The position numbers and the translations under genes were made by a program. The notes below the pieces were generated by a model. It saw only the letters and a program-made list of their open reading frames with translations. It ran no database searches and was not told the DNA's origin. Shown here in pieces: positions 3,319 to 37,237 of a DNA stretch of 64,000 nucleotides (the stretch's first letter is position 1; every line of letters begins with the position of its first letter). The DNA is from a virus (lineage: Duplodnaviria > Caudoviricetes). The stretch is taken from the IMG/VR virus record IMGVR_UViG_3300027819_000006, one strand, 5' to 3'.

Positions 3319-3912
3319 CTAAAATTGTTTAATATATGTGAATGATGCTCTTCTAAGTACTTTGTCAGCATAATTTGTAGTGCTAAATTTGTTTCCTTTA
3401 TTGTATCTCTCTAATGCTCTTACTAGATTATTGTTTTCTATTTTCAGACACCACTCTAAATGATTGATACCTGCTTTCAGATTTTCTTTTGTATTGTACA
3501 GATCATAACCTCTTACTCCATATATTTCAGCTGTAGCAGGTTTTACTTGCATCAGACCACGAGCATTTTTATTAGATTTACTATTTGTATTGAAATCTGA
3601 TTCTATGCTGATAATGCTGAAAACTATTGCAGGATTGATTTTCTTGTTTGTAGACATAAAATAGATGTATATAGCAAGAGTAGTATCAATTTTAAATTCT
3701 TTGGCATAAAGTTTAGATTTATTTATATGTTGTTCGAGTATTTTTGTTCTATGTTCTATGTCCTGTATTTTAGAGTTCAGTTCTGATATCTTTGTATTAT
3801 TTTTATCGATAATTTCTAATTTCTTTATGTAGCTCAAGCTACACACCATAAAGACAAAAATAATAAATACAGATAGAGAAATCTTTATAGTGAATAGAGC
3901 TTTAAACAGCAT
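3319..3912 (-). CDS. Lytic transglycosylase (SLT domain) with N-terminal membrane anchor
   Basis: IISIESDFN (catalytic E), ARGLMQVKPATA, NLKAGINHL, ALERYNKG. Confidence 0.85.
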   Translation of the reverse strand: MLFKALFTIKISLSVFIIFVFMVCSLSYIKKLEIIDKNNTKISELNSKIQDIEHRTKILEQHINKSKLYAKEFKIDTTLAIYIYFMSTNKKINPAIVFSIISIESDFNTNSKSNKNARGLMQVKPATAEIYGVRGYDLYNTKENLKAGINHLEWCLKIENNNLVRALERYNKGNKFSTTNYADKVLRRASFTYIKQF

Positions 3913-4648
3913 TTTCTAGAGTAATAAAAAAATCTTTTTCTAAATTTAAATTAGAAGCATGACAAATTCCAGAGCCATTAACAATAGCTAAACGTCTAGC
4001 CTTTACATCAGAAATCCATTTAGGATTTGCAGTTTCTGCTCTTTTAATAGCTATTATAGTAAGTTTTTGAACTTCATCAGTTATATTCTGTTTTACAAAA
4101 GTTTGCAATATATCTAATTTCATTGTATCAGAAATTCCACCTTGCTGTGTTCTCAAATCGAAGAACATCGCTGCCGCTCTTTGAGACTTAACCTGGTATA
4201 TTGGCATCATAGCCAAAGCTTTATCAAATACATTTTTAGCAACTTTCAACTGAATTTGTTGCATTTCATTAGTCTGACCTAATTTATAGAATCTATCTTT
4301 CCATTCTGGTAATATTTTATTATTTGTTTGTATTGCAGCTGACCAAGCTACTTGTGATTGTATATCTGTTTTATTCAACATCTCTTTAAAAGTAGCCGAA
4401 CCATTGCCAAAAATATTATCTACTATAGCACTATGACTCTGAATCATTTCTTTTAAAAGTGGTTGTAATGATCCTTGTCCTAAACAAAATTGTAAACATC
4501 CAAATGAAAAACCTTGTCCGTCAAAATTTCCACTCATGCCACTATAACTTTCAAGTGGCATTTTACCTGTCTCTATAAAACTTGTAAGAGCTACACACTT
4601 CTCTAATAATGTAGAGTCTTTATTTAATCTATTCATATAATTCTCCAA
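3902..4648 (-). CDS. Putative endolysin (lysozyme/chitosanase-like fold); likely start 4636
   Basis: FIETG...SGNFDGQGFSFGCLQFCLGQGSLQPLL resembles phage/Firmicute peptidoglycan hydrolases; adjacent to SLT. Confidence 0.6.
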   Translation of the reverse strand: MENYMNRLNKDSTLLEKCVALTSFIETGKMPLESYSGMSGNFDGQGFSFGCLQFCLGQGSLQPLLKEMIQSHSAIVDNIFGNGSATFKEMLNKTDIQSQVAWSAAIQTNNKILPEWKDRFYKLGQTNEMQQIQLKVAKNVFDKALAMMPIYQVKSQRAAAMFFDLRTQQGGISDTMKLDILQTFVKQNITDEVQKLTIIAIKRAETANPKWISDVKARRLAIVNGSGICHASNLNLEKDFFITLENAV

Positions 4649-5477
4649 AGTTTATTAACATCACTTTCCCATATTCTAACTAATTTATAACCATATTTTT
4701 TAGCTAATTCATTTTTTAATTGATCTATTTCTATTTTTATTTTCTGAAATTCGTTTACTGGTCCATTTGGATAATATTCAGGATTACAATGATGATAATT
4801 GCCGTCTACTTCTACTAGTATATTAAAATCTTGTAAATAAAAATCATAATATCTGTTTTCGATCTTGAATTGATTTTCATACCTAATATTACTTTCTATA
4901 TTTTTTCTACTGATTCTTCTACTTTTGAAGTTCTTCTATGCCAATCTTTAGCTACTTTTTCTTTCCACATTTTTTCAGCTATTTCTATACCAAAACTTTT
5001 AGCCCAAAAATCTTTGACTGTTTTGCCATACATCACATTCTTTGAACCTTTTTTATCATCTGACATTTTTAGCAATCTATCATCTGTATTCTTATTTAAC
5101 CCGTCATTCCAGTTTTTACCACCATTTTCATAAAATAAAATCATGCCTGCAGAAGTTTTATTTCCATGTATTTTTACTCTCTCATCTGTTTCTTTTGTAA
5201 GACCTTTATTCCAAGCACCCGATTTGACAAAACCAATTTTTAAAATGCTATTACGACATCCATAACATCTATTATTAGGTCCTTTCACTTCTTTATTACA
5301 GTCATTTTCTATACATTTATATTTATCTAATTTCAGAATTTCAAACCAATATTTTTTAGAATTTACCTTATGTTTTGCTCCAACATGACCAAATAAAGCA
5401 TTATAGCTTTTGAAAACTTTCTTGCAAATAAAACATGATGGTAGTGGATTATTACTTTTATATTCACTTATATTCAA
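4633..5477 (-). pseudogene. Homing-type endonuclease (Zn finger + NUMOD3-like + DUF559), one frameshift near 4896
   Basis: AWNKGLTKETDERV repeats; other frame continues NIRYENQFKIENRYYDFYLQDFNILVEVDGNYHH...VRIWESDVNKLWRII*; stop overlaps lysin ATG. Confidence 0.75.
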
Positions 5478-5497
5478 TCTATTTCTCCTATAATAAA

Positions 5498-5614
5498 AGC
5501 CAAGCAATTGTAATCTACAATAGACTATGAATCTAGTAGTTGCTTGGCTCAAACTATTGGTTAAGTTTATTGTAGATTACAATATAAATATATTTATAAG
5601 AGAAATAAATGCAA
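5498..5614 (-). promoter_or_regulatory. Class II promoter plus interleaved inverted-repeat leader (X-Y-X'-Y')
   Basis: ttgtaatctacaata 5508-5522 / 5568-5582 and agccaagcaa 5498-5507 / 5540-5549; TTGCAT...TATATTTATATT upstream. Confidence 0.75.
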
Positions 5615-5619
5615 ATCAC

Positions 5620-5769
5620 TCACTGCTGGATAGGGCCATACGAAATTCCCATGAGATCGAAATTTCCAGAAATGCAGCTGTAACACTCGGGTGGCATCTT
5701 ACTGTTTTCAATAAATCCAGTGAGACAGACTACCTTTTCTAATAGAGATGAATCTTTAGTTAATTTCAA
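5620..5769 (-). pseudogene. Displaced N-terminal stub of the lysin at 3902-4648
   Basis: TTG start with GGAG RBS; MKLTKDSSLLEKVVCLTGFIENSKMPPECYSCISGNFDLMGISYGPIQQ*; 29/46 identical to the lysin N-terminus by hand alignment. Confidence 0.85.
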
Positions 5770-5815
5770 ATTAACTCTCCATATTAATTGTTCAATATAA
5801 ATATATAATGCTAAT

Positions 5816-6115
5816 CTATAATGTCAGAACAGTATAGTCTCTTAACATTTGTCTGAACGGTGAAACTTTCTTTTTAGGATACAACTCTTCATCAGCTTTC
5901 ACAAAATCTTCATATTGTAGAGTAACAATATTCATATATTCGACATAGTCCATATCTTCTTTATTAACTTTCAGTTGTTTTACTCTTTCATTTTTAATCT
6001 GTACAGCTCTTTCTGCTATTTTTACTCTTTTAGCATAAACTGCGTTATCAAAATGAGCCACAATTGTTGGCATAAAAGCTATCAATATGAAAAGAACAAT
6101 GCAAGCTATGATCAT
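5816..6115 (-). CDS. hypothetical membrane-anchored protein
   Basis: N-terminal hydrophobic segment. Confidence 0.45.
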   Translation of the reverse strand: MIIACIVLFILIAFMPTIVAHFDNAVYAKRVKIAERAVQIKNERVKQLKVNKEDMDYVEYMNIVTLQYEDFVKADEELYPKKKVSPFRQMLRDYTVLTL

Positions 6116-6756: not shown

Positions 6757-7640
6757 TTATCCATTCTCCTGTAAATAATCATTTGTGATTTCTACTAATA
6801 GTTTGTCTATGGCTTTATCATTTGGTGAATACGGCAGATCACTAGTTTCATACAGCTCTTCCATTTCTTTATCATATTTCTCAGCAATTTCTATGATCTC
6901 TTCATATGTATATTTACCATTTCTAATAGCTAACAGTTCTTCTCTGTCATGCTCTCTGTAAGTAATAACTTGTTTATCTCTGTATTTCTATACCCATTCT
7001 CATGAGTCTGAAAAGATGAACACAGTGTTTTGTATCTACTTTATATTTTTCCTCTAACTCTGCTCTTTCTTTATTTCTGTTTTGCTTCCAATGCTCATAC
7101 TGTTCATATTTCTTTTTAGCATTCTCATATGCATCTTTATCAAAATAGTATCCGCCATTTTTAGTATATTCTTTTGGAATATCAAACATATTTGTTTCTA
7201 GCTTTTTCAGGTATTTCTCTGGTTCTGGCTTTGGCGGAGGATTATCTATCCAAACTTTATGCCCTTTTACTCTCTTAAGTTGACTATATGCGTAACCTGC
7301 GAAGCGGTGACGTGCTAATTTTGATAAAAATATATCTCTATTGTCAACCAATCTTTGTCCATTTGTCGCAGAATAGAATATTTTTAGGGTGTGAAAATAA
7401 AAGTTCTAAAACATTGGGATTGCAGTCTCTTGCAAGCTGAACAAACTTGTTTATAGAATATATTACAGTATCTGGCTCTTTATATTCTTGTTGCTCAAAT
7501 TTGTGCAGTCCATAGTAGAATTCTCGAGGTGCTATGCAAATCCCACGTATGTCTTCATCTGACAAAGAAGTAGAAATTCCATAGCCTATGCTGCCAGATA
7601 TACATTTGAAAATAGTTCTTTTTTCAATCCAATCAAACAT
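6757..7640 (-). pseudogene. Nucleotidyltransferase (RlaP / Pol-beta superfamily), two frameshifts
   Basis: SGSIGYG...SDEDIRG, NPNVLELLF, FAGYAYSQL, KHCVHLFRLMRMG; shifts near 7347 and 6975; third piece REHDREELLAIRNGKY...ENG*. Confidence 0.75.
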
Positions 7641-7842
7641 TTTTAATCCTTGTCATAAAATCTACAACAGCTACAGAAATATTTTGTAACAATTCTAATA
7701 GTTGTGTTTTAATTTTATCGTTGAAATCTTTAGAATCAAAAATGTAAGCGTTCATTTTCTTTATTTCATCTGGAATAGTTATAAGATTCTCAGACATAGC
7801 TGACTCCTTTGAAAGTTTTTAGCAACCATTTTGTAATGTTTA

Positions 7843-7871
7843 AATATAAACAATTTGCTATGAAAAGTAAA
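7843..7871 (-). promoter_or_regulatory. sigma70-type promoter (class I)
   Basis: TTTACT-N17-TATATT. Confidence 0.7.
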
Positions 7872-7880
7872 CAGATATTT

Positions 7881-8048
7881 TTAAACATCAATTATGGACT
7901 CTAAATAGTAATTTGGTAACATATCTTTGTTCATTTTCAAAATATTGTTAAAACATGAATCTAAAATGTAAGTATTTGCATAATCTGTATCATTTCTTAT
8001 AGATCTACCGCAGCCTTGAAGTATCTCGACGATCGTCTTCCACTGATA
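7881..8048 (-). pseudogene. Duplicate (displaced) C-terminal 55 codons of the DinG-like helicase; predicted TnpB guide source
   Basis: YQWKTIVEILQGCGRSIRNDTDYANTYILDSCFNNILKMNKDMLPNYYLESIIDV*; 36/55 identical to helicase 9364-9531; same length (168 nt). Confidence 0.9.
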
Positions 8049-8052
8049 ATTG

Positions 8053-9237
8053 CTATTTGCAGCTGCTTTCTTTGTCAGAGGGATTATAAACTCCTCTGTG
8101 CAGAATGTTTAAAGCAGCATTATAGTCTGCATCTAAACTTAGACCGCATTCCAGACATAAAAATTTATCTAATTTCCTATTTTCTTTATGTTTGAATCCA
8201 CATGAAGAACATTCCTGACTAGTATAGAAAGAAGAAACTTTCTTCAACTCTATACCCTGTTCTTCACACATCGACTGTAATTTTGAAATAGTTTTTGTAT
8301 AAGACCAATATTGCATTTTATTATTCATTTTCTTAGAATATTTTGATTTGTGTTTTACATTTTTCAAATCTTCTAAAACAACAATGGAGTTATTATAAAA
8401 ATCAATTTTATTGCATATTTCATTGATCTTATTATCTTTAAAAATAAGATATTGCTTATAATTTATAGACCCTCGTTTCATATTTGATAATTTAGTATAC
8501 AATTGTTTCATTTCTACACCATAGACATCATTGTTTGAAGAAACTAGAAGCTTATCATACCCGATGTCAAAAGCAACAGCAGCTTGCTGTTGTTTCAGCA
8601 TTATTTCTTTTTCATAAATAAATGTAATATAAAAATTACCATGTATTTTTCTTAGCAATATCGTATTTTTTCTATTCCAATTTTTGTATTTTAAAGATTG
8701 TTTATGTTGTTTGATAGGTAGATTAATTTTAAAAGCTCTTCTTTTGCTTTTTAAATATGGTAATTTTATGCCTATAAATTCATCAAAATGAGATGAAGAT
8801 TTATCATAACTTATAATTCTATAATCCATATTTATGCATATGTTTTTTATATTGATTCGTATTCTTGAAAATATATGATTTAATCGAAGCTCTGAAAATC
8901 TTTTACTCAGAAATTTTAACTGTCTATTATTTTTAGCGAAATATTTATAGCATTTTTTATATCTACTATATCTTTTATTTCTAGCATATCTAATATTAGA
9001 GCGTATTATTTCAGAAGCTTGTTTATGTATTATCTGTTTCCATCTTGAGTGTATTATTATGTTTGAGCTAACAGATTCAAAAAATTTAGCACTATTTAAG
9101 TCTGGTTTTTGCTTCAATATTTGTTCTATATAAAATATAAGATCTGTTTTATAGTCTTCAAAAACTTGCTCTAGCTGCTCTATCTTATTCTTATTAGAAA
9201 ATTTTAAAATGTGAGTGCTGCTTCTTTTTATAATCAA
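8053..9237 (-). CDS. tnpB: TnpB-family RNA-guided nuclease (RuvC triad apparently intact)
   Basis: AVAFDIG (RuvC-I), VVLEDL (II), SQECSSCG...CLECG Zn ribbon, DADYNAALNI (III). Confidence 0.9.
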   Translation of the reverse strand: MIIKRSSTHILKFSNKNKIEQLEQVFEDYKTDLIFYIEQILKQKPDLNSAKFFESVSSNIIIHSRWKQIIHKQASEIIRSNIRYARNKRYSRYKKCYKYFAKNNRQLKFLSKRFSELRLNHIFSRIRINIKNICINMDYRIISYDKSSSHFDEFIGIKLPYLKSKRRAFKINLPIKQHKQSLKYKNWNRKNTILLRKIHGNFYITFIYEKEIMLKQQQAAVAFDIGYDKLLVSSNNDVYGVEMKQLYTKLSNMKRGSINYKQYLIFKDNKINEICNKIDFYNNSIVVLEDLKNVKHKSKYSKKMNNKMQYWSYTKTISKLQSMCEEQGIELKKVSSFYTSQECSSCGFKHKENRKLDKFLCLECGLSLDADYNAALNILHRGVYNPSDKESSCK

Positions 9238-9257
9238 GTATATATCTCAAATAAAAA

Positions 9258-9361
9258 TGCCAAGTATTGGATCTTAAAAGACTATATGTCTAAAGATACT
9301 TGGCAGTTGATGTCAAGCCTTTTAAGATCCAATAATAAATATGAAATATAGAATAATGCAA
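9258..9361 (-). promoter_or_regulatory. Class II promoter plus X-Y-X'-Y' leader of tnpB
   Basis: ttggatcttaaaag 9267-9280 / 9319-9332; tgccaagta 9258-9266 / 9297-9305. Confidence 0.75.
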
Positions 9362-9363
9362 TA

Positions 9364-10977
9364 CTAAGCATCTATTATGGCATCTAAAAAATATTTTGGA
9401 AATAAATTTTTGTTCATTTTTAGCATATTATCGAAACAGGAGTCTAGAATGTAAGTTTTAGCATAATCATTTTCACTCCTTATAGATCTACCATAAGACT
9501 GTAATATTTCTGCTACAGATTTCCATTGATACCAGTCAGGCATAGTTTTCAATCTTTTCTTTACTTTTGGTGATGCTAAATTTGGAAATGGCACTTTGAC
9601 TATAATCTGAAATCTAGACAAGTCGTCTTTCAAATCTATACCATTTGTCATAGACGGAGATACAATCACTGAAGCATTTGTTGATTCATAATGCTCTTGT
9701 AGCTTGTCTTCTCTGTCATCTATATCGTGAAATATCAATCTATCATTATCAATACTGTGCATAATGATATTAGATATTTCGTAGCTATTAGTATGAATTA
9801 TGCCTTTTTCATTTTTGTGCTTATTCAAAATTGTATTTATAACTTGAGGTAAGTCTTTATAAGTATCATGTTTCTCTCTGTATGACAGCTTACCGATATC
9901 TAAATTGTACACCAATCTATTCTTGACTTCAAATGGAGAATCTAGACTCATATATGCTACATCTTGTTTTAGACCCATGTAATTTTTGAAGAAATTTTTA
10001 TTAAGAATAGTACCAGACATGAATATTACATGATCATAGTTCTTCCATATCATTTCTAGATGATCTTTGCCCCAGACTAATTCTGTTTTCAACACAGTCA
10101 AACCATCTTTATCTTTCTCTTTATAAAATACCCATTTTTCTGTATTATCTTCAGATTCATTTATAAATCTGTTAAATTTACAAATTACTTTATCTAAAAA
10201 TGAATAATCTTTTAATATTTTCAATTTTACATTTTGCACTGCAGCTAACTTGCATTGTTCTTTCAATTCTTTGTATCTAATATTTAAAACTGGTATTAGA
10301 TCATCAGTTACAAATTTAATATAAGTTTCTATTGATCCAATTCTATCAAGCTTAGACAGAAGTCTTGCATTTTTTATACCCCATCTGTTCATAGAACTTC
10401 TAGATATTGTGGAAGAAATGAATTCACAGAACACTTCTTCAAATGAATGTGCTTCATCTACGAATAGAACATTAGAACATCTTTTTTCTATAAATGTTGG
10501 AACATATATTAAATATGATAAGTAGACATGAAAATTTGCTAAACCCACTTTAGCATTTAAAAATTCTTCATATGCAGCTTTAGATGGACAGAAACTGCAT
10601 TCTGTTTTATTGAGCTTGTTTAAATCTTGTCCATCATCACAAGTCAGATTCCATTTTTCGCAGTTATAGTTATTCTTACCTTTGATACTTCTGATGAAAT
10701 CAAAATCAGCAGTATATTGATTTTGTAGAATTTTAGTATTAGTTAGAATATCAAATTTAGCATTTTTATCTATATTCTCAACATACCACTTCATTGCCAT
10801 GACAGCAAAATAACTCTTACCACACCCTACAGAAACGTCTAATAATAAAAATTTCTTCTTAGAATTGATTGACTCTTTGAAGAAATTTAACATCTGGTCT
10901 TGTTGCTGTCTTGGATTATGCTTTAGAGTGATCATAGAAAATAAATGAATGCACCTATTATAGGAATTTTGCTCCAT
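9364..10977 (-). CDS. DinG/Rad3-like SF2 helicase
   Basis: VGCGKS Walker A, FVDEAH, MSGT, IIHTNSY, SPSMTNGIDL, QSYGRSIR motif VI. Confidence 0.9.
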   Translation of the reverse strand: MEQNSYNRCIHLFSMITLKHNPRQQQDQMLNFFKESINSKKKFLLLDVSVGCGKSYFAVMAMKWYVENIDKNAKFDILTNTKILQNQYTADFDFIRSIKGKNNYNCEKWNLTCDDGQDLNKLNKTECSFCPSKAAYEEFLNAKVGLANFHVYLSYLIYVPTFIEKRCSNVLFVDEAHSFEEVFCEFISSTISRSSMNRWGIKNARLLSKLDRIGSIETYIKFVTDDLIPVLNIRYKELKEQCKLAAVQNVKLKILKDYSFLDKVICKFNRFINESEDNTEKWVFYKEKDKDGLTVLKTELVWGKDHLEMIWKNYDHVIFMSGTILNKNFFKNYMGLKQDVAYMSLDSPFEVKNRLVYNLDIGKLSYREKHDTYKDLPQVINTILNKHKNEKGIIHTNSYEISNIIMHSIDNDRLIFHDIDDREDKLQEHYESTNASVIVSPSMTNGIDLKDDLSRFQIIVKVPFPNLASPKVKKRLKTMPDWYQWKSVAEILQSYGRSIRSENDYAKTYILDSCFDNMLKMNKNLFPKYFLDAIIDA

Positions 10978-11961: not shown

Positions 11962-12252
11962 TTAATTTCCAGATGACAGCATCAAAGTTTCTACAGAACC
12001 TAAAATTCTACTAATCATTCTTTTGTGATTTTCACAAGTTCTGATTTTATGTCTTATAAGAGATAGTTCTCCTCTTTGCTTATTTTCTAATGCTTCTGAC
12101 ATTTCATTGTGCAGAACAGAAATGTTCAAAGACTCTCCATCGTACTTCTTCCTTAATTGTAGCAGAATTTGCTCATAAGTAATATTATCTTCAGTATGAT
12201 TCATATGTAGTAGTGTCTTATAAAAGCTGTGCATTAGTGATATCTGAGCCAT
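11962..12252 (-). CDS. hypothetical protein
   Basis: 96-aa ORF. Confidence 0.4.
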   Translation of the reverse strand: MAQISLMHSFYKTLLHMNHTEDNITYEQILLQLRKKYDGESLNISVLHNEMSEALENKQRGELSLIRHKIRTCENHKRMISRILGSVETLMLSSGN

Positions 12253-13333
12253 CTTTTGTCTCAGAAAATATGATCTTGTTCAATCCAGTCTCTACTTTTG
12301 TGATTCTTTCTAAATTCTCTAAAAATCTCTGTGGTGTTCTGTAAGTCTTCAATTCTCTGTTAAATACAAATCTATACGGATTCAGTTCTATTTCTCTTGG
12401 TATCTGCCTTAGCACATCCATTTTATTGAATATTACATGAGTGCCTCCAATAGATTTAACAGCATGAATAATCTTGTCTAGATTCATTACACCAATTTTT
12501 CTTGGTCTACCAGTAGTTTCACCAACTTCTTGACCGATGTCTCTGATTAGAGATTCCATTCCTTTTTTAAAGATATATTCAAATGGTTGTTCTTTGAAGC
12601 CAGAATAAGTAGAATATACTTTACAAACTGCATATACATTTCTCAATAAGCTAACTGGCATGTTAAAAGTAGTAAAAAAATGTCCGGGATGCAAATGTGA
12701 GCTAGTGCAATATGGATAGGAGTCAGAATCTATAGAAATTTGCATCCCTTGACTCCCTTCTAGCAAACAGTTACCAGAAAACTTAGTACATTTATTGTGG
12801 TAGAAATCATCTTGTTCCATGTATACATCTTTTATTGTAAATCTGTCATTATACTGTTCTGATTTACCTGATTCAAATTCTTGATCTTTTATATCTTTTA
12901 ATCTAATTCCTGTTCTATTATATTTGTCGACATAGCATGGACCAATGCCTTGTCTAGTAGTTCCTATTTTTATATCTTTTCCATCATCCTCCAAATTCTT
13001 ATCAGTTATAATATGACACTTTGAAGATATAAACATTCTATCTTTTAGATCAAATATATTATAAAATTTATCATATTCATCAAAAAATTTCTTCAAATTT
13101 ATACAGCAGCCGGGTCCAATGATCACGTTTGTGCTCTTATTATATATTCCCGAAGATAGAAGATGGGTTACATATTTCTGCCCATCTGCATATACAGAAT
13201 GTCCAGCATTGCTCCCACCTGAATATCGGATACAATTTTTATAGTTTTCTGTATCGATGAGTCTTTTAGAAATCTTTCCCTTCGATTCGTCGCCTTTGTC
13301 TATTCCTATAACTGCATCTACAAATTTTATCAT
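12218..13333 (-). CDS. purA: Adenylosuccinate synthetase
   Basis: GDESKGK, GGSNAGH, IGTTRQGIGPCY, EGSQG, GETTGRPR, NKMD. Confidence 0.9.
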   Translation of the reverse strand: MIKFVDAVIGIDKGDESKGKISKRLIDTENYKNCIRYSGGSNAGHSVYADGQKYVTHLLSSGIYNKSTNVIIGPGCCINLKKFFDEYDKFYNIFDLKDRMFISSKCHIITDKNLEDDGKDIKIGTTRQGIGPCYVDKYNRTGIRLKDIKDQEFESGKSEQYNDRFTIKDVYMEQDDFYHNKCTKFSGNCLLEGSQGMQISIDSDSYPYCTSSHLHPGHFFTTFNMPVSLLRNVYAVCKVYSTYSGFKEQPFEYIFKKGMESLIRDIGQEVGETTGRPRKIGVMNLDKIIHAVKSIGGTHVIFNKMDVLRQIPREIELNPYRFVFNRELKTYRTPQRFLENLERITKVETGLNKIIFSETKDGSDITNAQLL

Positions 13334-14320
13334 AAAATCTTCAATTCTTTTAATTTATTTTTATCCCATAGTTCGATTGGAATTTTGATACACTCCTGTA
13401 ATAGTGCAGGATATTTTTCACTACCATCAAACCATCCTTTAACCTCTATTATTTTTAATATTTCCTTCTATATCATAAACTATAAAATCTGGTAAATAAC
13501 TTCTATCTCTTATTATACATATTCTAAATTGTTCATATTTCCAAATAATGTTATTATTGTCGAAATATTTAGCGACTTTTGCTTCCCAAGTAGATTTAAA
13601 ACATATACCATTATAATATATTTTCTTTCCATGAGCTCTTGGTTTGCCAAATCTGGGATTTTTAATCCCTTTGGCCACTCCCTTTGATTTTCTTGTATTG
13701 GAAACACTATTTGCTAATTTTATCAGCCTAACATCTGTTTCTTTAGTTAGCCCTTTTTGCCAAGATGTCCAGCCATTAGCTACTAATTCTTTTTTTCTAT
13801 CAGACATTCTTTTTTTAGTTTCTTCAGAATGATTTCTACCATAAAAAGAAGCATTCTCGCCTGTACAGGAACCTGTCAATATTTTAGTCATGCATCCTTT
13901 TTCATGCCATTCTCTAAATTTTTCATCTGTATCTTTAGTCTTTCCTTTTTGCCAATTCACTATATTTCCTAAAGCATACCCCTCTTTTATAACTTTCGAC
14001 ATATTGCTTCTATATTCTTCAGAAAATATTCGATGAGAATTTCTACAACCATAACACATATTGCACTCTGCTTTAACTTCATTAAGACATCCTTGAACAG
14101 CGCAATAATATGTTAAAGAAGCTACACATTCAGAGCATCTATCTCCTCTATATCCAGTTACTTTGCTTAATATATCTCCACAAGTAGTGCATCTTTTTCT
14201 GTTTTTATTATATTCTGCTGCTTCACATTCTTTGCAAAATTTACTTTTTCTTCTACCATCATAAATATTGTTGCATATATCAAAATTTGAACATTTCGTT
14301 ACTCTCATCTTCTTCTCCAA
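13330..14320 (-). pseudogene. Homing-type endonuclease (Cys-rich + NUMOD3 + PD-(D/E)xK), frameshift near 13450
   Basis: SFYGRNHSEETKKRMS, KSTWEAKVAKY...YLPDF; other frame continues IIEVKGWFDG...LKIL*, whose stop overlaps the purA ATG. Confidence 0.75.
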
Positions 14321-14321
14321 C

Positions 14322-14448
14322 TAGTAAAGCCGATTAGTATCATCCTGATAGGGTATCCTACTGGCTAATCGGCTTTACTACAAAGTATATTTATGATTAA
14401 CCTATCAGAATGATAATATAAATATACTCTTGGAGAAAAATAGTACAT
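14322..14448 (-). promoter_or_regulatory. Class II promoter plus X-Y-X'-Y' leader
   Basis: tagtaaagccgattag 14322-14337 / 14365-14380; (at)ctgatagg 14342-14352 / 14401-14411. Confidence 0.7.
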
Positions 14449-14461
14449 TTTAAGGTTGTAA

Positions 14462-14508
14462 CTTTGCCTCATCGCCTGCCTCCCCTCATAGACGCAATCT
14501 ACATACAT
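14462..14508 (-). pseudogene. Probable displaced N-terminal stub of purA
   Basis: ATG 4 nt after upstream stop; with one restored base reads MYVDCVYGGEAGDEAK vs intact FVDAVIGIDKGDESK. Confidence 0.6.
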
Positions 14509-14512
14509 GCTT

Positions 14513-14818
14513 CTATTTCCTTTCTAACAATCCTTTTCTCAACTTTGCAATGAAATAATCTACACAATCTACTAAATCGTCAGAATCACTGTATTTATCT
14601 GCATAGTAATTCACAATCTTTGTTATCTGTTCACAGTTAAAATTCAGCATTCTAAATGCTTCATTTTTATCATGCTCTTTGATAACTTCTGGATAGTTAT
14701 CTGTTATAAATTTCTTACATTTTGCCATAGCTTCATCACATGCAGTAGATCTATCTGGCCACATTCTAGTTGCATATTCTACTTCTAGTATGTTCTCATA
14801 TAGCTCTAAAATGTTCAT
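14513..14818 (-). CDS. hypothetical protein
   Basis: 101-aa ORF. Confidence 0.45.
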   Translation of the reverse strand: MNILELYENILEVEYATRMWPDRSTACDEAMAKCKKFITDNYPEVIKEHDKNEAFRMLNFNCEQITKIVNYYADKYSDSDDLVDCVDYFIAKLRKGLLERK

Positions 14819-32405: not shown

Positions 32406-32478
32406 TTACCAGTGAAAGAGTTGAACTCTCATGACAAGGTTCAAAGCCTTGTATCTTAAACCATTAGATGAACTGGCA
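32406..32478 (-). tRNA. tRNA-Gln(TTG), CCA not encoded
   Basis: CAAGG-CTTTGAA-CCTTG; acceptor TGCCAGT/ACTGGTA. Confidence 0.8.
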
Positions 32479-32539
32479 TTTTAGATTTTAAAAACATATT
32501 TTCTGACTTCATCGACAAAAGACAAAGAGACTGTATTAT

Positions 32540-32618
32540 TTTGCTCAAGAACTTGGAGTTACACCAATATTTTCTCATTAGATAAATGAGCGCTTTGATC
32601 AATTTGAATTACAAGAGC
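32540..32618 (-). pseudogene. Degenerate tRNA-like sequence
   Basis: Acceptor GCTCTTG/CTTGAGC with two mismatches; CTCAT/ATGAG anticodon stem. Confidence 0.35.
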
Positions 32619-32627
32619 TTTTAATAT

Positions 32628-32855
32628 TTACCAACTTTCTAAATTGATTTCATGATATATTCCACATTCACAGTATAGTATTTCTACATATATACTGCCA
32701 TGAGAACCACATAACTCACATTCTCCAGAATTAGATCTTATGAATATTCTATCTGTTGTCATTTCTTTATTTAATTTAGGACAGATGTATTTTAAACAAA
32801 GAAGTTTAGCATCTTTATATTTCTTTATTCTTTTCATCTGTTTCATATGTTTCAT
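32628..32855 (-). CDS. small Cys-rich protein
   Basis: CELCGSH, CECGIYH. Confidence 0.45.
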   Translation of the reverse strand: MKHMKQMKRIKKYKDAKLLCLKYICPKLNKEMTTDRIFIRSNSGECELCGSHGSIYVEILYCECGIYHEINLESW

Positions 32856-32873
32856 ATAGCTTTACTTTCAATT

Positions 32874-32951
32874 TGGAGGGATGAAGCGGATTTGAACCGC
32901 AATCTGCTTGTTTCACATACAAGCGCTTTACTCGCTTAAGCTATCATCCCC
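32874..32951 (-). tRNA. tRNA-His(GTG)
   Basis: CTTGT-ATGTGAA-ACAAG, G-1, CCA. Confidence 0.85.
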
Positions 32952-32958
32952 AATTGTT

Positions 32959-33034
32959 TGGAGACTCCAGTTGGAATTTCACCAACACAAAGCAATTTTG
33001 CAGATTGTTCTCTTGAATATTAGAGCATGGAGTC
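32959..33034 (-). tRNA. tRNA-Cys(GCA)
   Basis: Loop CTGCAAA; acceptor GACTCCA/TGGAGTC; T-CCA. Confidence 0.8.
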
Positions 33035-33045
33035 TTATTTTATAT

Positions 33046-33137
33046 TGGTCGGTAAGGAGAGATTTGAACTCTAAAGATGTTTTTATCAACATCTGACAGT
33101 TTAGCAAACTGTTTGGTTCACTATACCAGATCTTCCA
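33046..33137 (-). tRNA. tRNA-Ser(GCT), 5' acceptor strand imperfect
   Basis: ACAGT-TTGCTAA-ACTGT, long variable arm, CCA. Confidence 0.6.
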
Positions 33138-33145
33138 TATAGTTT

Positions 33146-33244
33146 AATCTACACCAGAAATGCAGATAAAATATCTTGTGCACAGATAGATTAACATCAT
33201 TTCTTATGCTCTCAACCTGGATATCAGGAGTTGCAGTGTAGATT
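33146..33244 (-). ncRNA. candidate tRNA-sized structured RNA
   Basis: Closing stem AATCTACAC/GTGTAGATT with internal hairpins; no tRNA consensus. Confidence 0.35.
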
Positions 33245-33251
33245 TTTATGT

Positions 33252-33326
33252 TGGTCGAGCAAGAAAGAGTTGAACTTTCATCGACTGGTTCCCAAAACCA
33301 GGGCTATTACATTAAGCTATTGCTCG
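33252..33326 (-). tRNA. tRNA-Pro(TGG)
   Basis: CTGGT-TTTGGGA-ACCAG, CCA. Confidence 0.85.
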
Positions 33327-33337
33327 ATATTTTAATT

Positions 33338-33412
33338 TGGTGACCCGTGAGATAGTTGAAATCTCCTCTAGAGTTTGAAAGACTCTGATACTTTCCGCTG
33401 TACGAACGGGTC
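33338..33412 (-). tRNA. tRNA-Glu(TTC)
   Basis: AGAGT-CTTTCAA-ACTCT, CCA. Confidence 0.85.
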
Positions 33413-33423
33413 ATTTTATATTT

Positions 33424-33501
33424 TGGTGGCTCTAACAGGATTCCAACCTGTGGCTTCCTCTTTAGAAGAGAGGCACTCTATGCGGGCTGAGTTATAGAGC
33501 C
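33424..33501 (-). tRNA. tRNA-Arg(TCT)
   Basis: CCTCT-CTTCTAA-AGAGG, CCA. Confidence 0.85.
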
Positions 33502-33701
33502 ATTTAAATTTTATATCGTCATATTAGTATTTTTCTAATATTGTATTCTTCTTCAGATTGCAACCTCTTTAAAAAATCATTTTATCTGGACAAGAGTGAC
33601 GTACCAGACAAGCATCATTGAGCCACCATCAGAGGAACTTTCGTTACTCCTCCACCGCTACTTTTTTCACAAGAAAGTAGTAAAACTCTTTCATATTTAA
33701 G

Positions 33702-33785
33702 TGGCCCTAGAAGGATTTGAACCTTCACCCAGATTAACTGGACTAGTTCTTAAAACTAGCGTGGCTGCCGTTACACCATAGAGCC
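33702..33785 (-). tRNA. tRNA-Leu(TAA), CCA not encoded
   Basis: CTAGT-TTTAAGA-ACTAG, long variable arm. Confidence 0.85.
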
Positions 33786-33811
33786 ATTACTTATCCATCT
33801 TCTTACAAATA

Positions 33812-34033
33812 TCAATTCAGCTTATCAAACAGAAGTGCATAAAAAACTATAATTGCCATGACTACACAAAATACTGCATCAAATTTACCTTTATCTAATG
33901 TTCTCAGATGTTCCATTGGAGCATAACAGATAAACATTAATAGTAAGAGTCCATAGATTGCTCGAAACATTTTAGTAACCTTTCTTATAGACTGTTTATT
34001 TTGTATAGTATAATATAAACAATCTATAAACAA
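33812..34033 (-). CDS. small membrane protein (likely start MFRAIYG)
   Basis: Hydrophobic ORF after promoter. Confidence 0.4.
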   Translation of the reverse strand: MFIDCLYYTIQNKQSIRKVTKMFRAIYGLLLLMFICYAPMEHLRTLDKGKFDAVFCVVMAIIVFYALLFDKLN

Positions 34034-34040
34034 AAGTAAA
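34012..34040 (-). promoter_or_regulatory. sigma70-type promoter (class I)
   Basis: TTTACT-N17-TATATT. Confidence 0.7.
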
Positions 34041-34057
34041 GGAGTATTTTAAAATTA

Positions 34058-34149
34058 TTAGACTTGCCACAATCAACCAAAGCTGATTGTTCGCCACGTA
34101 ATTTGTCTAACTCTGAATCTGCAAGAGTGCAGATTCAGCAGTAGTCTAA
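34058..34149 (-). ncRNA. candidate tRNA-sized structured RNA
   Basis: Closing TTAGACT/AGTCTAA; hairpins CTGAATCTGCA/TGCAGATTCAG and ACAATCAGC/GTTGATTGT. Confidence 0.45.
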
Positions 34150-34160
34150 TTTTTATTAGT

Positions 34161-34183
34161 TGGTAGCCTGGGAGCGATTTGCA
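34161..34183 (-). pseudogene. 3' fragment of a split tRNA
   Basis: TGCAAAT-CGCTC-CCAGGCT-A-CCA; partner 5' fragment at 35333-35357. Confidence 0.6.
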
Positions 34184-34215
34184 GGCTATGTAATAAATTT
34201 ATTATATGGACTTTG

Positions 34216-34289
34216 TACGGGATGAGGGAGTCAAACCCTCCATCTTGGCTTTATAAGAACCAGGCATTCATCAGGTATGCTAATCCCGT
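34216..34289 (-). tRNA. tRNA-Ile(TAT), CCA not encoded, within a 20-bp perfect inverted repeat
   Basis: TGGTT-CTTATAA-AGCCA; repeat 34204-34223 / 34283-34302. Confidence 0.75.
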
Positions 34290-34339
34290 ACAAAGTCCAT
34301 ATTTCTATTTAAAATTATTAGCTTAAAAGTAAAAATACA

Positions 34340-35227
34340 TTATGCAAGAGCTAATTGTTTCATGAATATGTCGAATTCAACTTCTACAAATAACTCGTTA
34401 TGTTTGCCCATGTCTTTTATAATATAAACTTTATAGCCAGCTCTTTCTATTTCTTTTATTTTTATCTTTTCTCTACTCTGTACTTGTTCGACTGAATGTT
34501 TATCTGCTACTTTCTTATAATGCCAAATACCATTCCATAAAATTGCAGTTTTAATATCTTCTATTATTACATCTGCATCCCAACCATTAAAAATAGCTTC
34601 ATTATGCAGTACGTTTTTAAATTTTCTGCAACACAGTTCATAAAAATATATTTCATTCTTGCTTCTTCTTCTTAATCTCTGAGAATTAGCAGATTTTTTA
34701 CCAGCTTCTCTTGCTTTAGCTAAATATTCAGCAGAAGATCTTGTACATGTTTCACAGCAATATTTTTTATTTGAATCTATTCTTTTCAAAAACATTTTTT
34801 GACAATTGATGCTATTACATGTTACTTCTATTCTTTCTATTTTATGAATATTTACTATTCTGCCGCTTACATAACCTGATTTAATAGTATTTGATACTTT
34901 TTTTCGAGTTTCTTCACTGTGTGTTCGCGCATGCGAACATTTATCAGAACAGCATTTATGAGATAGAGCATTATCTCTAATTCTTATTTGAGTTTCGAAC
35001 CATTTGTTACATCTATCACATTTGTGAAAAACTTCAACCCATAAAATCTTTTTAGCTTTCGACTTTATACTTTTAGATAATTTCTGTAATGATTCTTCTG
35101 AAAACTTTCTTCCATAAAAGGGATTATTAGACCCTTTTAAATTTATTCCAGTGTTGCAGAATCTTTTGTGAGATGTTACTGCTCTTTTAGATTTAAAATA
35201 TCTATCGCATGTATCACATTTTATCAT
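34340..35227 (-). CDS. Homing-type endonuclease (Zn finger, NUMOD3, Vsr/DUF559-like)
   Basis: NPFYGRKFSEE, HSEETRKKVS, RSKNEIYF...WDADV...LWNGIWH. Confidence 0.75.
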   Translation of the reverse strand: MIKCDTCDRYFKSKRAVTSHKRFCNTGINLKGSNNPFYGRKFSEESLQKLSKSIKSKAKKILWVEVFHKCDRCNKWFETQIRIRDNALSHKCCSDKCSHARTHSEETRKKVSNTIKSGYVSGRIVNIHKIERIEVTCNSINCQKMFLKRIDSNKKYCCETCTRSSAEYLAKAREAGKKSANSQRLRRRSKNEIYFYELCCRKFKNVLHNEAIFNGWDADVIIEDIKTAILWNGIWHYKKVADKHSVEQVQSREKIKIKEIERAGYKVYIIKDMGKHNELFVEVEFDIFMKQLALA

Positions 35228-35332
35228 TGAACTATCTCCTCAGTGTTTATACTATAATAAATATAAACATCAAAGAGAAAAGTTCAACTACATATTACCC
35301 CAATCAATACTGTTTATTGAAGCAATATTTCT

Positions 35333-35357
35333 ACCGTCCTGGATCGGTCTGCAGGCT
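35333..35357 (-). pseudogene. 5' fragment of a split tRNA
   Basis: AGCCTGC acceptor strand plus D-arm ACCG/CGGT. Confidence 0.5.
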
Positions 35358-35366
35358 ATTTAAAAT

Positions 35367-35834
35367 TTACTTCTTCACAAGATTTGGATCAACAATTTCC
35401 GGATTGATAATTGTAACCTTGATGTCATCCATTTCGTACTTGTACTTTCCATAAGTATTTTCAAGATATGGTCTGATTGCATCTGGTGTGAAGCAGAAAA
35501 CTGATCCATCAATATCGACCAGAACTGGCATCTTCCTTCTACTAACTTTCAATCCGATAATCTTTGCATTCTTGCTATCATAAGTGAATGGCTTATTAAT
35601 CCATTCAGGATTGAGTTGATACCACTGAGCTTCTTCAATATAGTCTCTATAGAACTGCGTAATCACAACTCCATCTTCTGCAACTGCTGAACATTCAAGC
35701 TTCATACTGAAAGATGAATCATTAAACTTGATACAGCCCTGACTGAACTTGACATTATACTTTGTTTCAACAACTTTAAGAGCATTTTCAATTTCTCTAC
35801 GGATATTCTTGAGGTTGCTCTTATCAAAAACCAT
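35367..35834 (-). CDS. hypothetical protein
   Basis: 155-aa ORF with GGAG RBS. Confidence 0.55.
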   Translation of the reverse strand: MVFDKSNLKNIRREIENALKVVETKYNVKFSQGCIKFNDSSFSMKLECSAVAEDGVVITQFYRDYIEEAQWYQLNPEWINKPFTYDSKNAKIIGLKVSRRKMPVLVDIDGSVFCFTPDAIRPYLENTYGKYKYEMDDIKVTIINPEIVDPNLVKK

Positions 35835-35886
35835 TTTGATTTAATCTCCGTTTGAGAAGTTGTTGTATAACCATTTTGTACGGTTA

Positions 35887-35911
35887 AATATAAACTGAAT
35901 GCAAATGTAAA
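35887..35911 (-). promoter_or_regulatory. degenerate class I promoter (13-nt spacer)
   Basis: TTTACA...TATATT with ACAAAATGGTT downstream, as in other copies. Confidence 0.45.
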
Positions 35912-35917
35912 CAATTT

Positions 35918-36376
35918 TTATTCAATTGTCAAATTATTATCTAACCATTCTTCACACTGCTCTTGAGACTTTATATTACCAAGATTGTTCCTAAAATAGA
36001 ATAGTTTCACGTTCAAAATATTTTTAAATGCTTTAATTTTCAATTTAGATATAGTGACGTGTCTTCCTCTTCTAGAGCCCTTTATTTCTATCCATAGATT
36101 ACAATCTGGTATGAAAAAATCAGGAACATATTGCATCCCATCATCTGAAGTTCCATTGCTGATAGTGAATTTTTCAGCATTTTTAATCCAATAGATGTTT
36201 CTACTATTCAGTATATCTGCAAAAGCTAATTCATACAACCCATTCATTTCAAACTGTTCACCTTTTATATTTGCAAATTGTCTATTCTTTGTAAGCTCTT
36301 TTTGAGATTCATGGTTCAAATCAATCATGATATCTCCATTAATTGGTAACCATTTTATATGATTAAATATAAACAA
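35918..36376 (-). CDS. PD-(D/E)xK nuclease-like protein
   Basis: YELAFA...YVPDFFIPDCNLWIEIKG. Confidence 0.6.
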   Translation of the reverse strand: MFIFNHIKWLPINGDIMIDLNHESQKELTKNRQFANIKGEQFEMNGLYELAFADILNSRNIYWIKNAEKFTISNGTSDDGMQYVPDFFIPDCNLWIEIKGSRRGRHVTISKLKIKAFKNILNVKLFYFRNNLGNIKSQEQCEEWLDNNLTIE

Positions 36377-36394
36377 TTTAACCTAAAAGTAAAC
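36366..36394 (-). promoter_or_regulatory. sigma70-type promoter (class I)
   Basis: TTTACT-N17-TATATT. Confidence 0.65.
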
Positions 36395-36410
36395 AACTGT
36401 TTTATTTTGT

Positions 36411-36485
36411 AGCATCTACTCAGATTTAAACTGAGACCCTTTGCTTGGAAGGCAAACATGCTAAATCGTTAAACACTATAGATAC
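36411..36485 (-). tRNA. tRNA-Gly(TCC), CCA not encoded
   Basis: TTTGC-CTTCCAA-GCAAA. Confidence 0.8.
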
Positions 36486-36503
36486 TTATTTTTATATATA
36501 GAG

Positions 36504-36586
36504 TGCCAGAGGAGAGATTTGAACTCTCAGTAGGATTTCTCCAGATTGCTTCTAAAGCAATTTCGTATGCATTCCGACACTCTGGC
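36504..36586 (-). tRNA. tRNA-Leu(TAG), CCA not encoded
   Basis: ATTGC-TTTAGAA-GCAAT, long variable arm. Confidence 0.8.
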
Positions 36587-36836
36587 TCTTTTGTAATCTT
36601 TCTATTCTATCAAGTTCTTTTTGCATTTTTAAAATTTCTAATTCTGTATATATTAACAAAATTCTTAAAGAATCTAATTTTGTATTTGCAAATAAAAATG
36701 GGTTATTAAGATTTTTCATTATTGTTTTTACTAAAGCAGTATCTACAGGAACTGTTGCAGATTTTGTAGATACTGCAAACAATAAAATACAAGCTAAAAT
36801 TAATGCCATAACTTTCATTTTATCTCATTTTAAAAT

Positions 36837-36919
36837 TGGTAGCCCTACTCAGATTTGAACTGAGACGGCATAAATGCCACTGCTTTTGAAGCAGTTGAGT
36901 AGACATTCCTCTATAGGGC
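36837..36919 (-). tRNA. tRNA-Leu(CAA)
   Basis: ACTGC-TTCAAAA-GCAGT, CCA. Confidence 0.85.
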
Positions 36920-36945
36920 TATTGTTATTCTTCATCATTTATTAG

Positions 36946-37029
36946 TAGCTCTGGAGGGATTTCAACCCTCACTCCATTTAAGGAACATATTCTTGAAATA
37001 TGCGAGTCTAGCAATTTCTCCACAGAGCT
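36946..37029 (-). tRNA. tRNA-Leu(CAA), second copy, CCA not encoded
   Basis: CATAT-TTCAAGA-ATATG. Confidence 0.8.
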
Positions 37030-37036
37030 ATATTTT

Positions 37037-37110
37037 TGGTGGACTGAGATGGAATCGCACATCTACCACTAGTTTTTCAAGCTAGCACTCTTCTCCTGAG
37101 TTATCAGTCC
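37037..37110 (-). tRNA. tRNA-Phe(GAA)
   Basis: Loop TTGAAAA; acceptor GGACTGA/TCAGTCC; CCA. Confidence 0.8.
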
Positions 37111-37118
37111 CTATTTAT

Positions 37119-37146
37119 TGGTGCACTTGATAGGATTCGAACATAT
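37119..37146 (-). pseudogene. 3' fragment of a split tRNA
   Basis: GTTCGAATCCTAT-CAAGTGC-A-CCA; complementary 5' GCACTTG at 37872-37878. Confidence 0.7.
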
Positions 37147-37159
37147 ATGAGATTTTTAT

Positions 37160-37237
37160 TGGTGGGTCTGGCAGGAATTGCACCCGCATTTTTCTCCTTA
37201 AAAGGGAGCTACAAAAGCTAATTTTTGTTACAGACCC
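37160..37237 (-). tRNA. tRNA-Lys(TTT) with a 6-bp D-stem
   Basis: Loop CTTTTAA; ACAAAA/TTTTGT D-stem; 5' end overlaps the last codons of the upstream nuclease ORF. Confidence 0.75.

Follow-up and report, generated by a model that had tools for sequence, protein, structure and literature searches.

A transposase-less TnpB gene between two diverged copies of a helicase gene end in a phage genome: a candidate RNA-guided homing cassette

In a stretch of 64,000 nucleotides (nt) from the Caudoviricetes record IMGVR_UViG_3300027819_000006 of IMG/VR (hereafter the window; 30% G+C, part of a contig of ~ 272 kb), a gene encoding the RNA-guided nuclease TnpB lies between two diverged copies of the 3' end of a Rad3/DinG-like helicase gene. 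Based on the sequence of the locus and of its relatives, we propose, with a probability of about 0.6, that this transposase-less, IS607-derived TnpB acts as a free-standing homing endonuclease gene in an essential gene, and that a spare gene end (copy A), a leader, tnpB and the scaffold of its guide RNA (omega-RNA) would be copied together into related phages by cut-and-repair. Coordinates are those of the window throughout, unless another locus is named. All genes around the locus are carried by the minus strand, on which the order of transcription is helicase, a 126-nt spacer, tnpB, CAAT, the displaced gene end (copy B), a promoter-like motif and the next gene.

The duplicated helicase end

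The helicase gene (9364-10977) encodes 537 aa with Pfam matches to Helicase_C_2 (1e-20) and ResIII (1.6e-7). Its body, residues 1-482 (9532-10977), was delimited by the open reading frame (ORF) and its translation together with these two domains, and it is continued in frame by copy A (9364-9531), the translated last 55 codons and the stop codon. Copy B (7881-8048) is untranslated and forms an open frame of 55 codons to a TAA, in a frame other than that of tnpB, beginning 4 nt (CAAT) past the tnpB stop. The two copies align without gaps, with 36/55 identical aa (tblastn, E 6.4e-20) and 79% identity over the final 128 nt (blastn, E 1.5e-25), and the duplication begins at Y483 of the helicase, just 5' of the Q-x-Y-G-R-S-I-R motif. 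These comparisons bear out the original prediction, made from the letters of the window and its reading frames, which had described a same-length duplication of this identity placed 4 nt past the tnpB stop and starting just before helicase motif VI (QxxGRxxR). The resulting order, i.e., gene body, inserted diverged end, nuclease gene and remnant of the native end, is the one that defines cassettes of the mobile-ORF (mORF) type, which are compared below. Copies A and B are each other's nearest relatives, other relatives being at most 49% identical overall and at most 54% over the end; the helicase has 1891 homologues, the best at 49% identity, and none of the phage helicase ends in GenBank exceeded 54% identity to either copy.

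At the DNA level, the two copies differ by 27%, with 44 substitutions that are mostly silent. The proportion of differing synonymous sites (pS) was 0.72, which is near saturation, and that of non-synonymous sites (pN) was 0.16, with a ratio of non-synonymous to synonymous rates (dN/dS) of ~ 0.08 over the whole copy and ~ 0.18 for nt 40-165. When neutral decay was simulated with 44 random substitutions, the frame stayed open in only ~ 6% of simulations. The prevalence of silent differences and the openness of the frame point to two formerly functional alleles of different lineages, and the divergence looks to have built up mostly while both copies encoded working helicase ends in separate lineages, not by decay of a duplicate in place.

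Copy B is now starting to decay. Comparison with 119 homologues revealed oddities of copy B at four near-invariant positions, i.e., Tyr to Cys in Q-x-Y-G-R (Tyr in 119/119), Ala to Ser (Ala in 118), Phe to Tyr (Phe in 109) and Asp to Asn (Asp in 105), whereas copy A retains all four family residues. Within the first eight codons, the zone of the predicted guide, copy B is nearer to the consensus of these homologues and copy A has unusual residues; at such a distance, the comparison is not decisive as to which copy is the native one. Mismatches between A and B are denser in the first 39 nt (17/39) than beyond them (27/126; p 0.007, for a cut chosen post hoc). The overall pattern fits, without proving, an arrangement in which A is the translated end that differs where the guide would bind and B is an untranslated remnant.

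An IS607-derived TnpB without its transposase

The tnpB gene (8053-9237) has a TTG start and a TAG stop (8053-8055), and it encodes a protein of 394 aa that matched the Cas12f1-like TNB family PF07282 (E 6.7e-20), which is also found in almost all of its 274 homologues. In an alignment of 28 sequences (the window TnpB and 27 homologues), the RuvC residues D224, E289 and D371 and the zinc-finger cysteines C343, C346, C361 and C364 were invariant. The intact D/E/D triad and zinc cysteines indicate a TnpB of the nuclease type, which by its sequence should be nuclease-competent. Assignment to TldR, the nuclease-dead regulator derived from TnpB, was ruled out on the same intact triad. Members of the TnpB family are common in phage contigs, with several copies in some phages. 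The genome of the same 272-kb phage carries, outside the window, a paralogue that is 67% identical (L002, 5001-6173; L-numbers denote phage TnpB loci) with the same leader and an AATTAT right end.

The original prediction had considered IS200/IS605 ends for the element, but comparison with its relatives points to another clade. A serine recombinase gene, the tnpA of IS607-type elements, ends just before tnpB in ~ 15 related loci; the clade is therefore IS607-type, and end hairpins in the IS605 style are not expected. The reported lack of such hairpins holds in that no IS605 end was found, but the 126 nt upstream of tnpB hold two strong interleaved hairpins, in a leader shared with a non-TnpB nuclease gene. 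The reported absence of a flanking tnpA was upheld, since only 126 nt, too short for a transposase gene, separate the stop of copy A from the tnpB start, and tblastn with the C-terminus of IS607 TnpA found no match in the window. As tnpA is missing here and present in ~ 15 related loci, the window element is by its sequence relationships best classed as IS607-derived and not as an autonomous IS607 member. With respect to IS607-type ends, the right-end motif is present, and copy A stands where the left end would be.

The right end, the scaffold and the predicted guide

A hairpin within the 3' end of tnpB (8076-8098, CAGAGG...CCTCTG) was examined by RNAalifold across 14 relatives, and five of its nine pairs showed compensatory double changes, with none broken. 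A covarying hairpin in this position is as expected for an omega-RNA scaffold, and we take it to be part of one on the evidence of the alignment. Rfam gave no match for the scaffold, nor for any other family at the locus.

The right end of the element was located by comparing relatives, without reference to the duplication. The two tnpB copies of L091 are identical through ...AGTAATTAT and unrelated immediately after it, and AAYTAT closes the conserved part in L002, L089, L090 and L004 as well as in both L091 copies. (L091 is a groundwater contig of 10.6 kb in which the two copies, 4618-5952 and 7585-8940, are 82% identical and bracket a glycosyltransferase gene.) In the window, the motif AATTAT (8046-8051, read from 8051 to 8046) would supply the final bases of both the right end and the omega-RNA scaffold, and its final TAT is at the same time the first 3 nt of the homology between A and B. 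Given this overlap, the guide most likely begins at 8045 (CAGTGGAAGACGATCG..., CAGTGG...), 3 nt inside copy B, and the predicted 20-nt guide, CAGTGGAAGACGATCGTCGA, occupies 8026-8045, directly after the right-end motif, as the first bases of copy B past the common TAT. The earlier proposal that the guide is taken from the start of copy B is thus kept in that the right end abuts copy B, with its most likely start moved from 8048 to 8045. The coincidence of a conserved element end, defined independently, with the start of the duplication supports the homing reading.

Copy B was the sole site in the window within three mismatches of the predicted guide, and copy A was not among the matches. Copy A mismatches the guide at positions 3, 9, 10, 12, 13, 15, 17 and 18, six of them within the first 16 nt. 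The two 20-mers that had originally been compared do differ at 7/20 positions, as reported (6, 12, 13, 15, 16, 18 and 20), and the claim that the functional copy is immune to the guide stood in the part tested, i.e., the heavy mismatch of copy A. In an uninterrupted allele, the predicted target would be preceded by CTGGTAT (9529-9535), read from the sequence at the position of a target-adjacent motif (TAM), and the last 3 nt of this flank, TAT, are those common to the right end. Three approaches to the TAM through relatives were negative: the left boundaries in the multi-copy groups L010-L013 and L057 were not clean, no close pairs of insertion sequences (IS) existed among 20 loci bearing tnpA, and the flanks of the two L091 copies had no consistent motif.

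The same junction in other phage TnpB loci

In ~ 100 phage TnpB loci taken from IMG/VR, the sequence upstream of tnpB was compared with the one downstream of it. Two loci on T4-like phage contigs, L079 and L068, encode TnpBs that are 85% identical to each other and ~ 34% identical to the window TnpB. In L079 (2325-4185), the element is followed by a second copy of the last 31 codons of a gene for a gp19-like tail tube protein, in which seven of the nine initial codons differ, all silently, and the remainder is nearly identical. In L068 (2434-4127), it is the end of a regA-like gene that occurs twice, and the copies mismatch silently at four guide positions (5, 6, 8 and 11). The 3' ends of the two elements are alike through ...GGYAAYC and then diverge, and the duplication starts exactly there in each. 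Judged by these junctions, L079 and L068 are independent repeats of the window layout with silent mismatches in the putative guide seed. No cassette-free (empty) site was found for either locus, and the two contigs have none of the relevant genes in common.

A different arrangement was observed in L035, where the opposite strand carries a 968-aa gene whose 68-aa end occurs in duplicate (1555-1779 and 4275-4482) ~ 1.2 kb upstream of tnpB, with two ORFs in between. This geometry does not fit a simple guide model.

The leader and a neighboring endonuclease cassette

The cassette leader (9238-9363) consists of a TATATTT-type motif, two interleaved inverted repeats, a U-run and a GAGA-type ribosome-binding site, followed by the TTG start of tnpB. 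Its 126 nt fold as RNA at -25 kcal/mol (z -3.1), with a stem A of ~ 15-19 bp and a stem B, GCCAAGTAT/ATACTTGGC, of the GCCAAG.../...CTTGGC type and followed by the U-run; the two stems are interleaved as A-B-A'-B'. Between the leaders of the window tnpB and the paralogue L002, stem A covaries and stem B is conserved. Leader sites were located at 9238-9363 and 5480-5600 in the window, at 4870-5000 in L002 and at ~ 4620-4720 in L091. To judge by its predicted fold, the interleaved leader may act as a terminator/antiterminator switch, or as a pseudoknot, to limit expression of the nuclease.

The same leader layout precedes an HNH-like ORF with a C2H2 finger (4896-5552), a nuclease gene unrelated to TnpB, which lies between two diverged copies (4490-4630 and 5626-5766; 47 aa, 62% identical) of the start of the gene at 3902-4648. 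This cassette mirrors that of TnpB with a protein nuclease in its place, at the 5' end of a gene. The common leader and the flanking copies suggest that TnpB fills the same type of slot as protein homing endonucleases in this phage, a setting that counts in favor of the homing reading. Further endonuclease-like ORFs occur near the locus. A NUMOD3 endonuclease-like ORF (13439-14320) adjoins an adenylosuccinate-synthetase-like gene (12218-13333); a simple screen of this region (12218-14818) detected no flanking duplication.

The proposed mechanism and the points that weigh against it

In the mechanism that we favor, the mobile unit would be composed of copy A, the leader, tnpB and the omega-RNA scaffold. 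Transcription would take in the scaffold together with the 3' end of tnpB and run on into copy B, so that the guide would be the 16-20 nt at the start of the displaced native end of the helicase gene (CAGTGGAAGACGATCG...). During co-infection, the TnpB-RNA complex would cut helicase alleles in which a B-type sequence is contiguous with the gene body. In the ensuing repair, the helicase body would provide the left homology arm and copy B plus the downstream DNA the right one, and copy A, the leader and tnpB would thereby be transferred to the broken allele. The helicase would stay functional because copy A completes its reading frame, and copy A would be spared from cutting because of its mismatches with the guide. 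The omega-RNA ends, the TAM, cleavage and homing are what we infer in this scheme. With regard to origin, it may be speculated that a single illegitimate crossover joined the right end in one phage to the TAT of codon 483 in the helicase of a related phage. The cassette architecture in the original prediction is retained and gained support from the right end that abuts copy B, the intact catalytic residues of TnpB, the resemblance of A and B to two alleles, the heavy mismatch of copy A and the repeats in L079 and L068, with changes in the guide start, the clade and the details of the leader.

On a wider scale, it is possible, at somewhat less than even odds, that IS607-derived phage TnpBs repeatedly became transposase-free, RNA-guided home-and-rescue drives at the conserved ends of essential phage genes, with a silently recoded spare end that gives both rescue and immunity and with the displaced end serving as a programmable guide and homology arm.

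Several observations weigh against homing. Flanking duplications were found in only ~ 3-6 of the ~ 100 screened phage TnpB loci, most of which are intergenic without duplication, and the paralogue L002 of the same genome is likewise intergenic without a flanking duplication. The window element and this paralogue diverge 27 nt ahead of copy B, after CAAAGAAA, so that the assignment of the scaffold end rests on a short common motif; part of these 27 nt pairs with upstream coding sequence in the window. As TAT is common to the right end AATTAT and to the predicted target flank TGGTAT, the mechanism leaves the escape of the resident copy B from cutting unexplained. The guide zone is modestly enriched in mismatches, and the enrichment varies with the cut-off chosen (p 0.15 over the initial 24 nt).

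Furthermore, neither IMG/VR nor metagenome contigs nor four groundwater runs yielded a cassette-free allele that carries the B sequence. The original prediction had expected relatives with a tnpB-free helicase gene ending in the sequence of 7881-8048; none turned up, and with the nearest helicase relatives at most 49% identical this absence is uninformative. Single-protein queries of IMG/VR returned essentially no close relatives of the helicase or of TnpB, and the exact 20-mer of the copy B start was absent from IMG/VR. Two matches to this 20-mer in metagenome contigs were discarded as chance, being on unrelated contigs of 36% and 62% GC. In Logan contigs of the four groundwater runs, the same phage was found with no joint that skips the cassette, in assemblies that break at the repeated promoter and leader and cannot exclude rare variants. 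The lack of a cassette-free allele and the distance of the relatives neither support nor refute the homing model.

Alternative explanations

The duplication could instead be a recombination scar with a passenger IS, in which the helicase end was doubled when two related phages recombined, illegitimately or by template switching, and a decayed IS607-type insertion that no longer homes sits at the joint. The resemblance of A and B to alleles of two lineages, the intergenic position without duplications of most phage TnpB relatives, including the paralogue of the same genome, and the failure to find a target allele all favor such a scar. Nevertheless, we consider it unlikely, as the duplication starts within 3 nt of an independently defined right end, with the same coincidence in L079 and L068, TnpB is intact, and one would expect decay or deletion of a copy B without use. 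Moreover, the scenario serves equally well as the origin of a homing cassette and need not be an alternative to one. A more improbable reading is that TnpB is a weapon of phage against phage without homing, where the guide directs it to destroy the helicase gene of competing relatives in co-infection and the duplication supplies no more than the guide and self-immunity. The anatomy would be the same as for homing, homing endonucleases that kill competitors have been described for phages (PMC13565253), and the 27% DNA divergence of A and B may limit recombination. However, copy B with the downstream DNA and the helicase body are ready-made homology arms, and in co-infection a cut homologous genome is normally repaired from its uncut partner; killing and homing could also both occur.

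The leader common to tnpB and the HNH-like ORF 4896-5552, whose cassette also lies between diverged copies of a gene end, raises the further idea that a protein homing endonuclease cassette made the duplication and that tnpB later replaced the nuclease gene, with the guide being irrelevant. We regard this as very doubtful, because it accounts neither for the TnpB right-end motif that abuts copy B within 3 nt nor for the same junction in phages with different leaders. Least credible of all is an IStron, i.e., a self-splicing group I intron with tnpB whose splicing would join the helicase body to copy B. IStrons of the IS607 type do exist (PMC10690162), but the group I intron family Intron_gpI gave no match at E up to 5 in 7400-9900, copy A completes the frame with its own stop, and copy B is without the invariant Tyr of Q-x-Y-G-R.

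Genomic context

The window contains phage hallmarks, and its closest DNA matches are huge phages. Downstream of copy B, an intergenic motif of ~ 60 nt (7824-7886) precedes the next gene (7633-7797), in agreement with the promoter that the original prediction had placed after copy B. The motif recurs ahead of genes in at least 10 further sites of the window (2306, 23983, 26830, 29112, 33998, 36348, 38028, 46053, 49655 and 51451), and it is probably a phage-specific promoter with a 5' untranslated region. A scan for sigma-70 promoters returned 24 sites against 15 expected, which has little weight in DNA of 30% GC. A cluster of 11 tRNA genes was located on the minus strand at 32406-37237.

Comparison with known systems and significance

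The TnpB/omega-RNA systems of IS605 and IS607 elements (ISDra2, a Geobacillus IS605 element, CboIStron) cut the empty site, and recombination then restores or spreads the element (PMC8612924, PMC10055086, PMC10690162). The window element shares with them the protein family and an intact RuvC site, relatives that carry an IS607-type serine recombinase and, as predicted here, a guide RNA that overlaps the 3' end of the gene and a guide copied from the DNA just past the right end, with the presence of the insert separating self from target. In contrast to these systems, the window element has neither a transposase nor a recognizable left end, lies within coding sequence that is essential to a jumbo phage of lytic type, brings a diverged replacement gene end that keeps the interrupted gene whole, and would spread only by recombination between co-infecting genomes. 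Homing of TnpB independent of TnpA has an experimental precedent in plasmids, a plasmid 'gene drive' (PMC11870625, as summarized in PMC13565253). A review of 2026 regards transfer into co-infecting phages as theoretical and says nothing of replacement gene ends (PMC13565253).

Besides TnpB/IS607 homing, the nearest known systems are the mORFs of fungal mitochondria, whose insertion brings along a foreign C-terminal segment while the native C*-terminus stays behind downstream, as in atp6 of Allomyces and atp6, atp9, cox2 and nad3 of Glomus (PMC3630166). The order of body, inserted diverged end, nuclease gene and native remnant is identical, the divergence is largely silent in both, and the inserted end is the one expressed. 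The nucleases of mORFs, however, are LAGLIDADG or GIY-YIG proteins that recognize DNA themselves, in an organelle and not in a phage, whereas recognition in the window cassette would be via an RNA copied from the displaced end; the remnant would thereby have a function, unlike in mORFs. The free-standing homing endonucleases Seg and Mob of T4-like phages, known for intronless homing and marker exclusion (reviewed in PMC13565253), resemble the proposed window cassette: the nuclease gene lies between conserved genes, its product cuts the corresponding allele in a co-infecting relative, the gene is then inserted there along with the DNA on its flanks, and the carrier is immune through site differences. 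They differ in being protein-guided and in having no duplication of the target gene end. IStrons (PMC10690162) likewise place a TnpB element in a gene without harm to the host, but they mend the message by splicing, whereas here the repair would be at the DNA level through the spare gene end, and no intron was detected. Engineered home-and-rescue (HomeR) drives and related recoded-rescue CRISPR drives (PMC7968924) combine, as the window cassette would, an RNA-guided nuclease in an essential gene with a recoded, cleavage-immune gene end as rescue; these drives are synthetic, based on Cas9 and built in insects, whereas the window locus is natural, based on TnpB and found in a phage.

Searches of the literature on TnpB with phage homing, recoded genes or essential genes gave no description of this combination; many subscription papers lay outside the coverage of these searches, which are no proof of absence. 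The combination thus seems undescribed. The locus joins two things known separately, i.e., TnpB that protects and spreads its own transposon, and protein homing endonucleases with spare gene ends in fungal mitochondria. It also offers a compact, testable system of one small protein, one RNA and two natural alleles (A predicted to be immune and B predicted to be sensitive), with which one could study how the TAM is used, how far mismatches are tolerated and how recombination drives gene flow in jumbo and T4-like phages. If the homing reading is true, RNA-guided nucleases would be true homing genes between viruses without any transposase, and the 'recoded rescue' design of synthetic gene drives would have been reached independently by nature. 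The displaced gene end would be a functional part, both guide and homology arm, and not junk. If the wider proposal also holds, a single illegitimate crossover at the right end would be enough for retargeting, and no known homing elements would be easier to re-aim. Such cassettes may account for mosaic gene ends in phage genomes.

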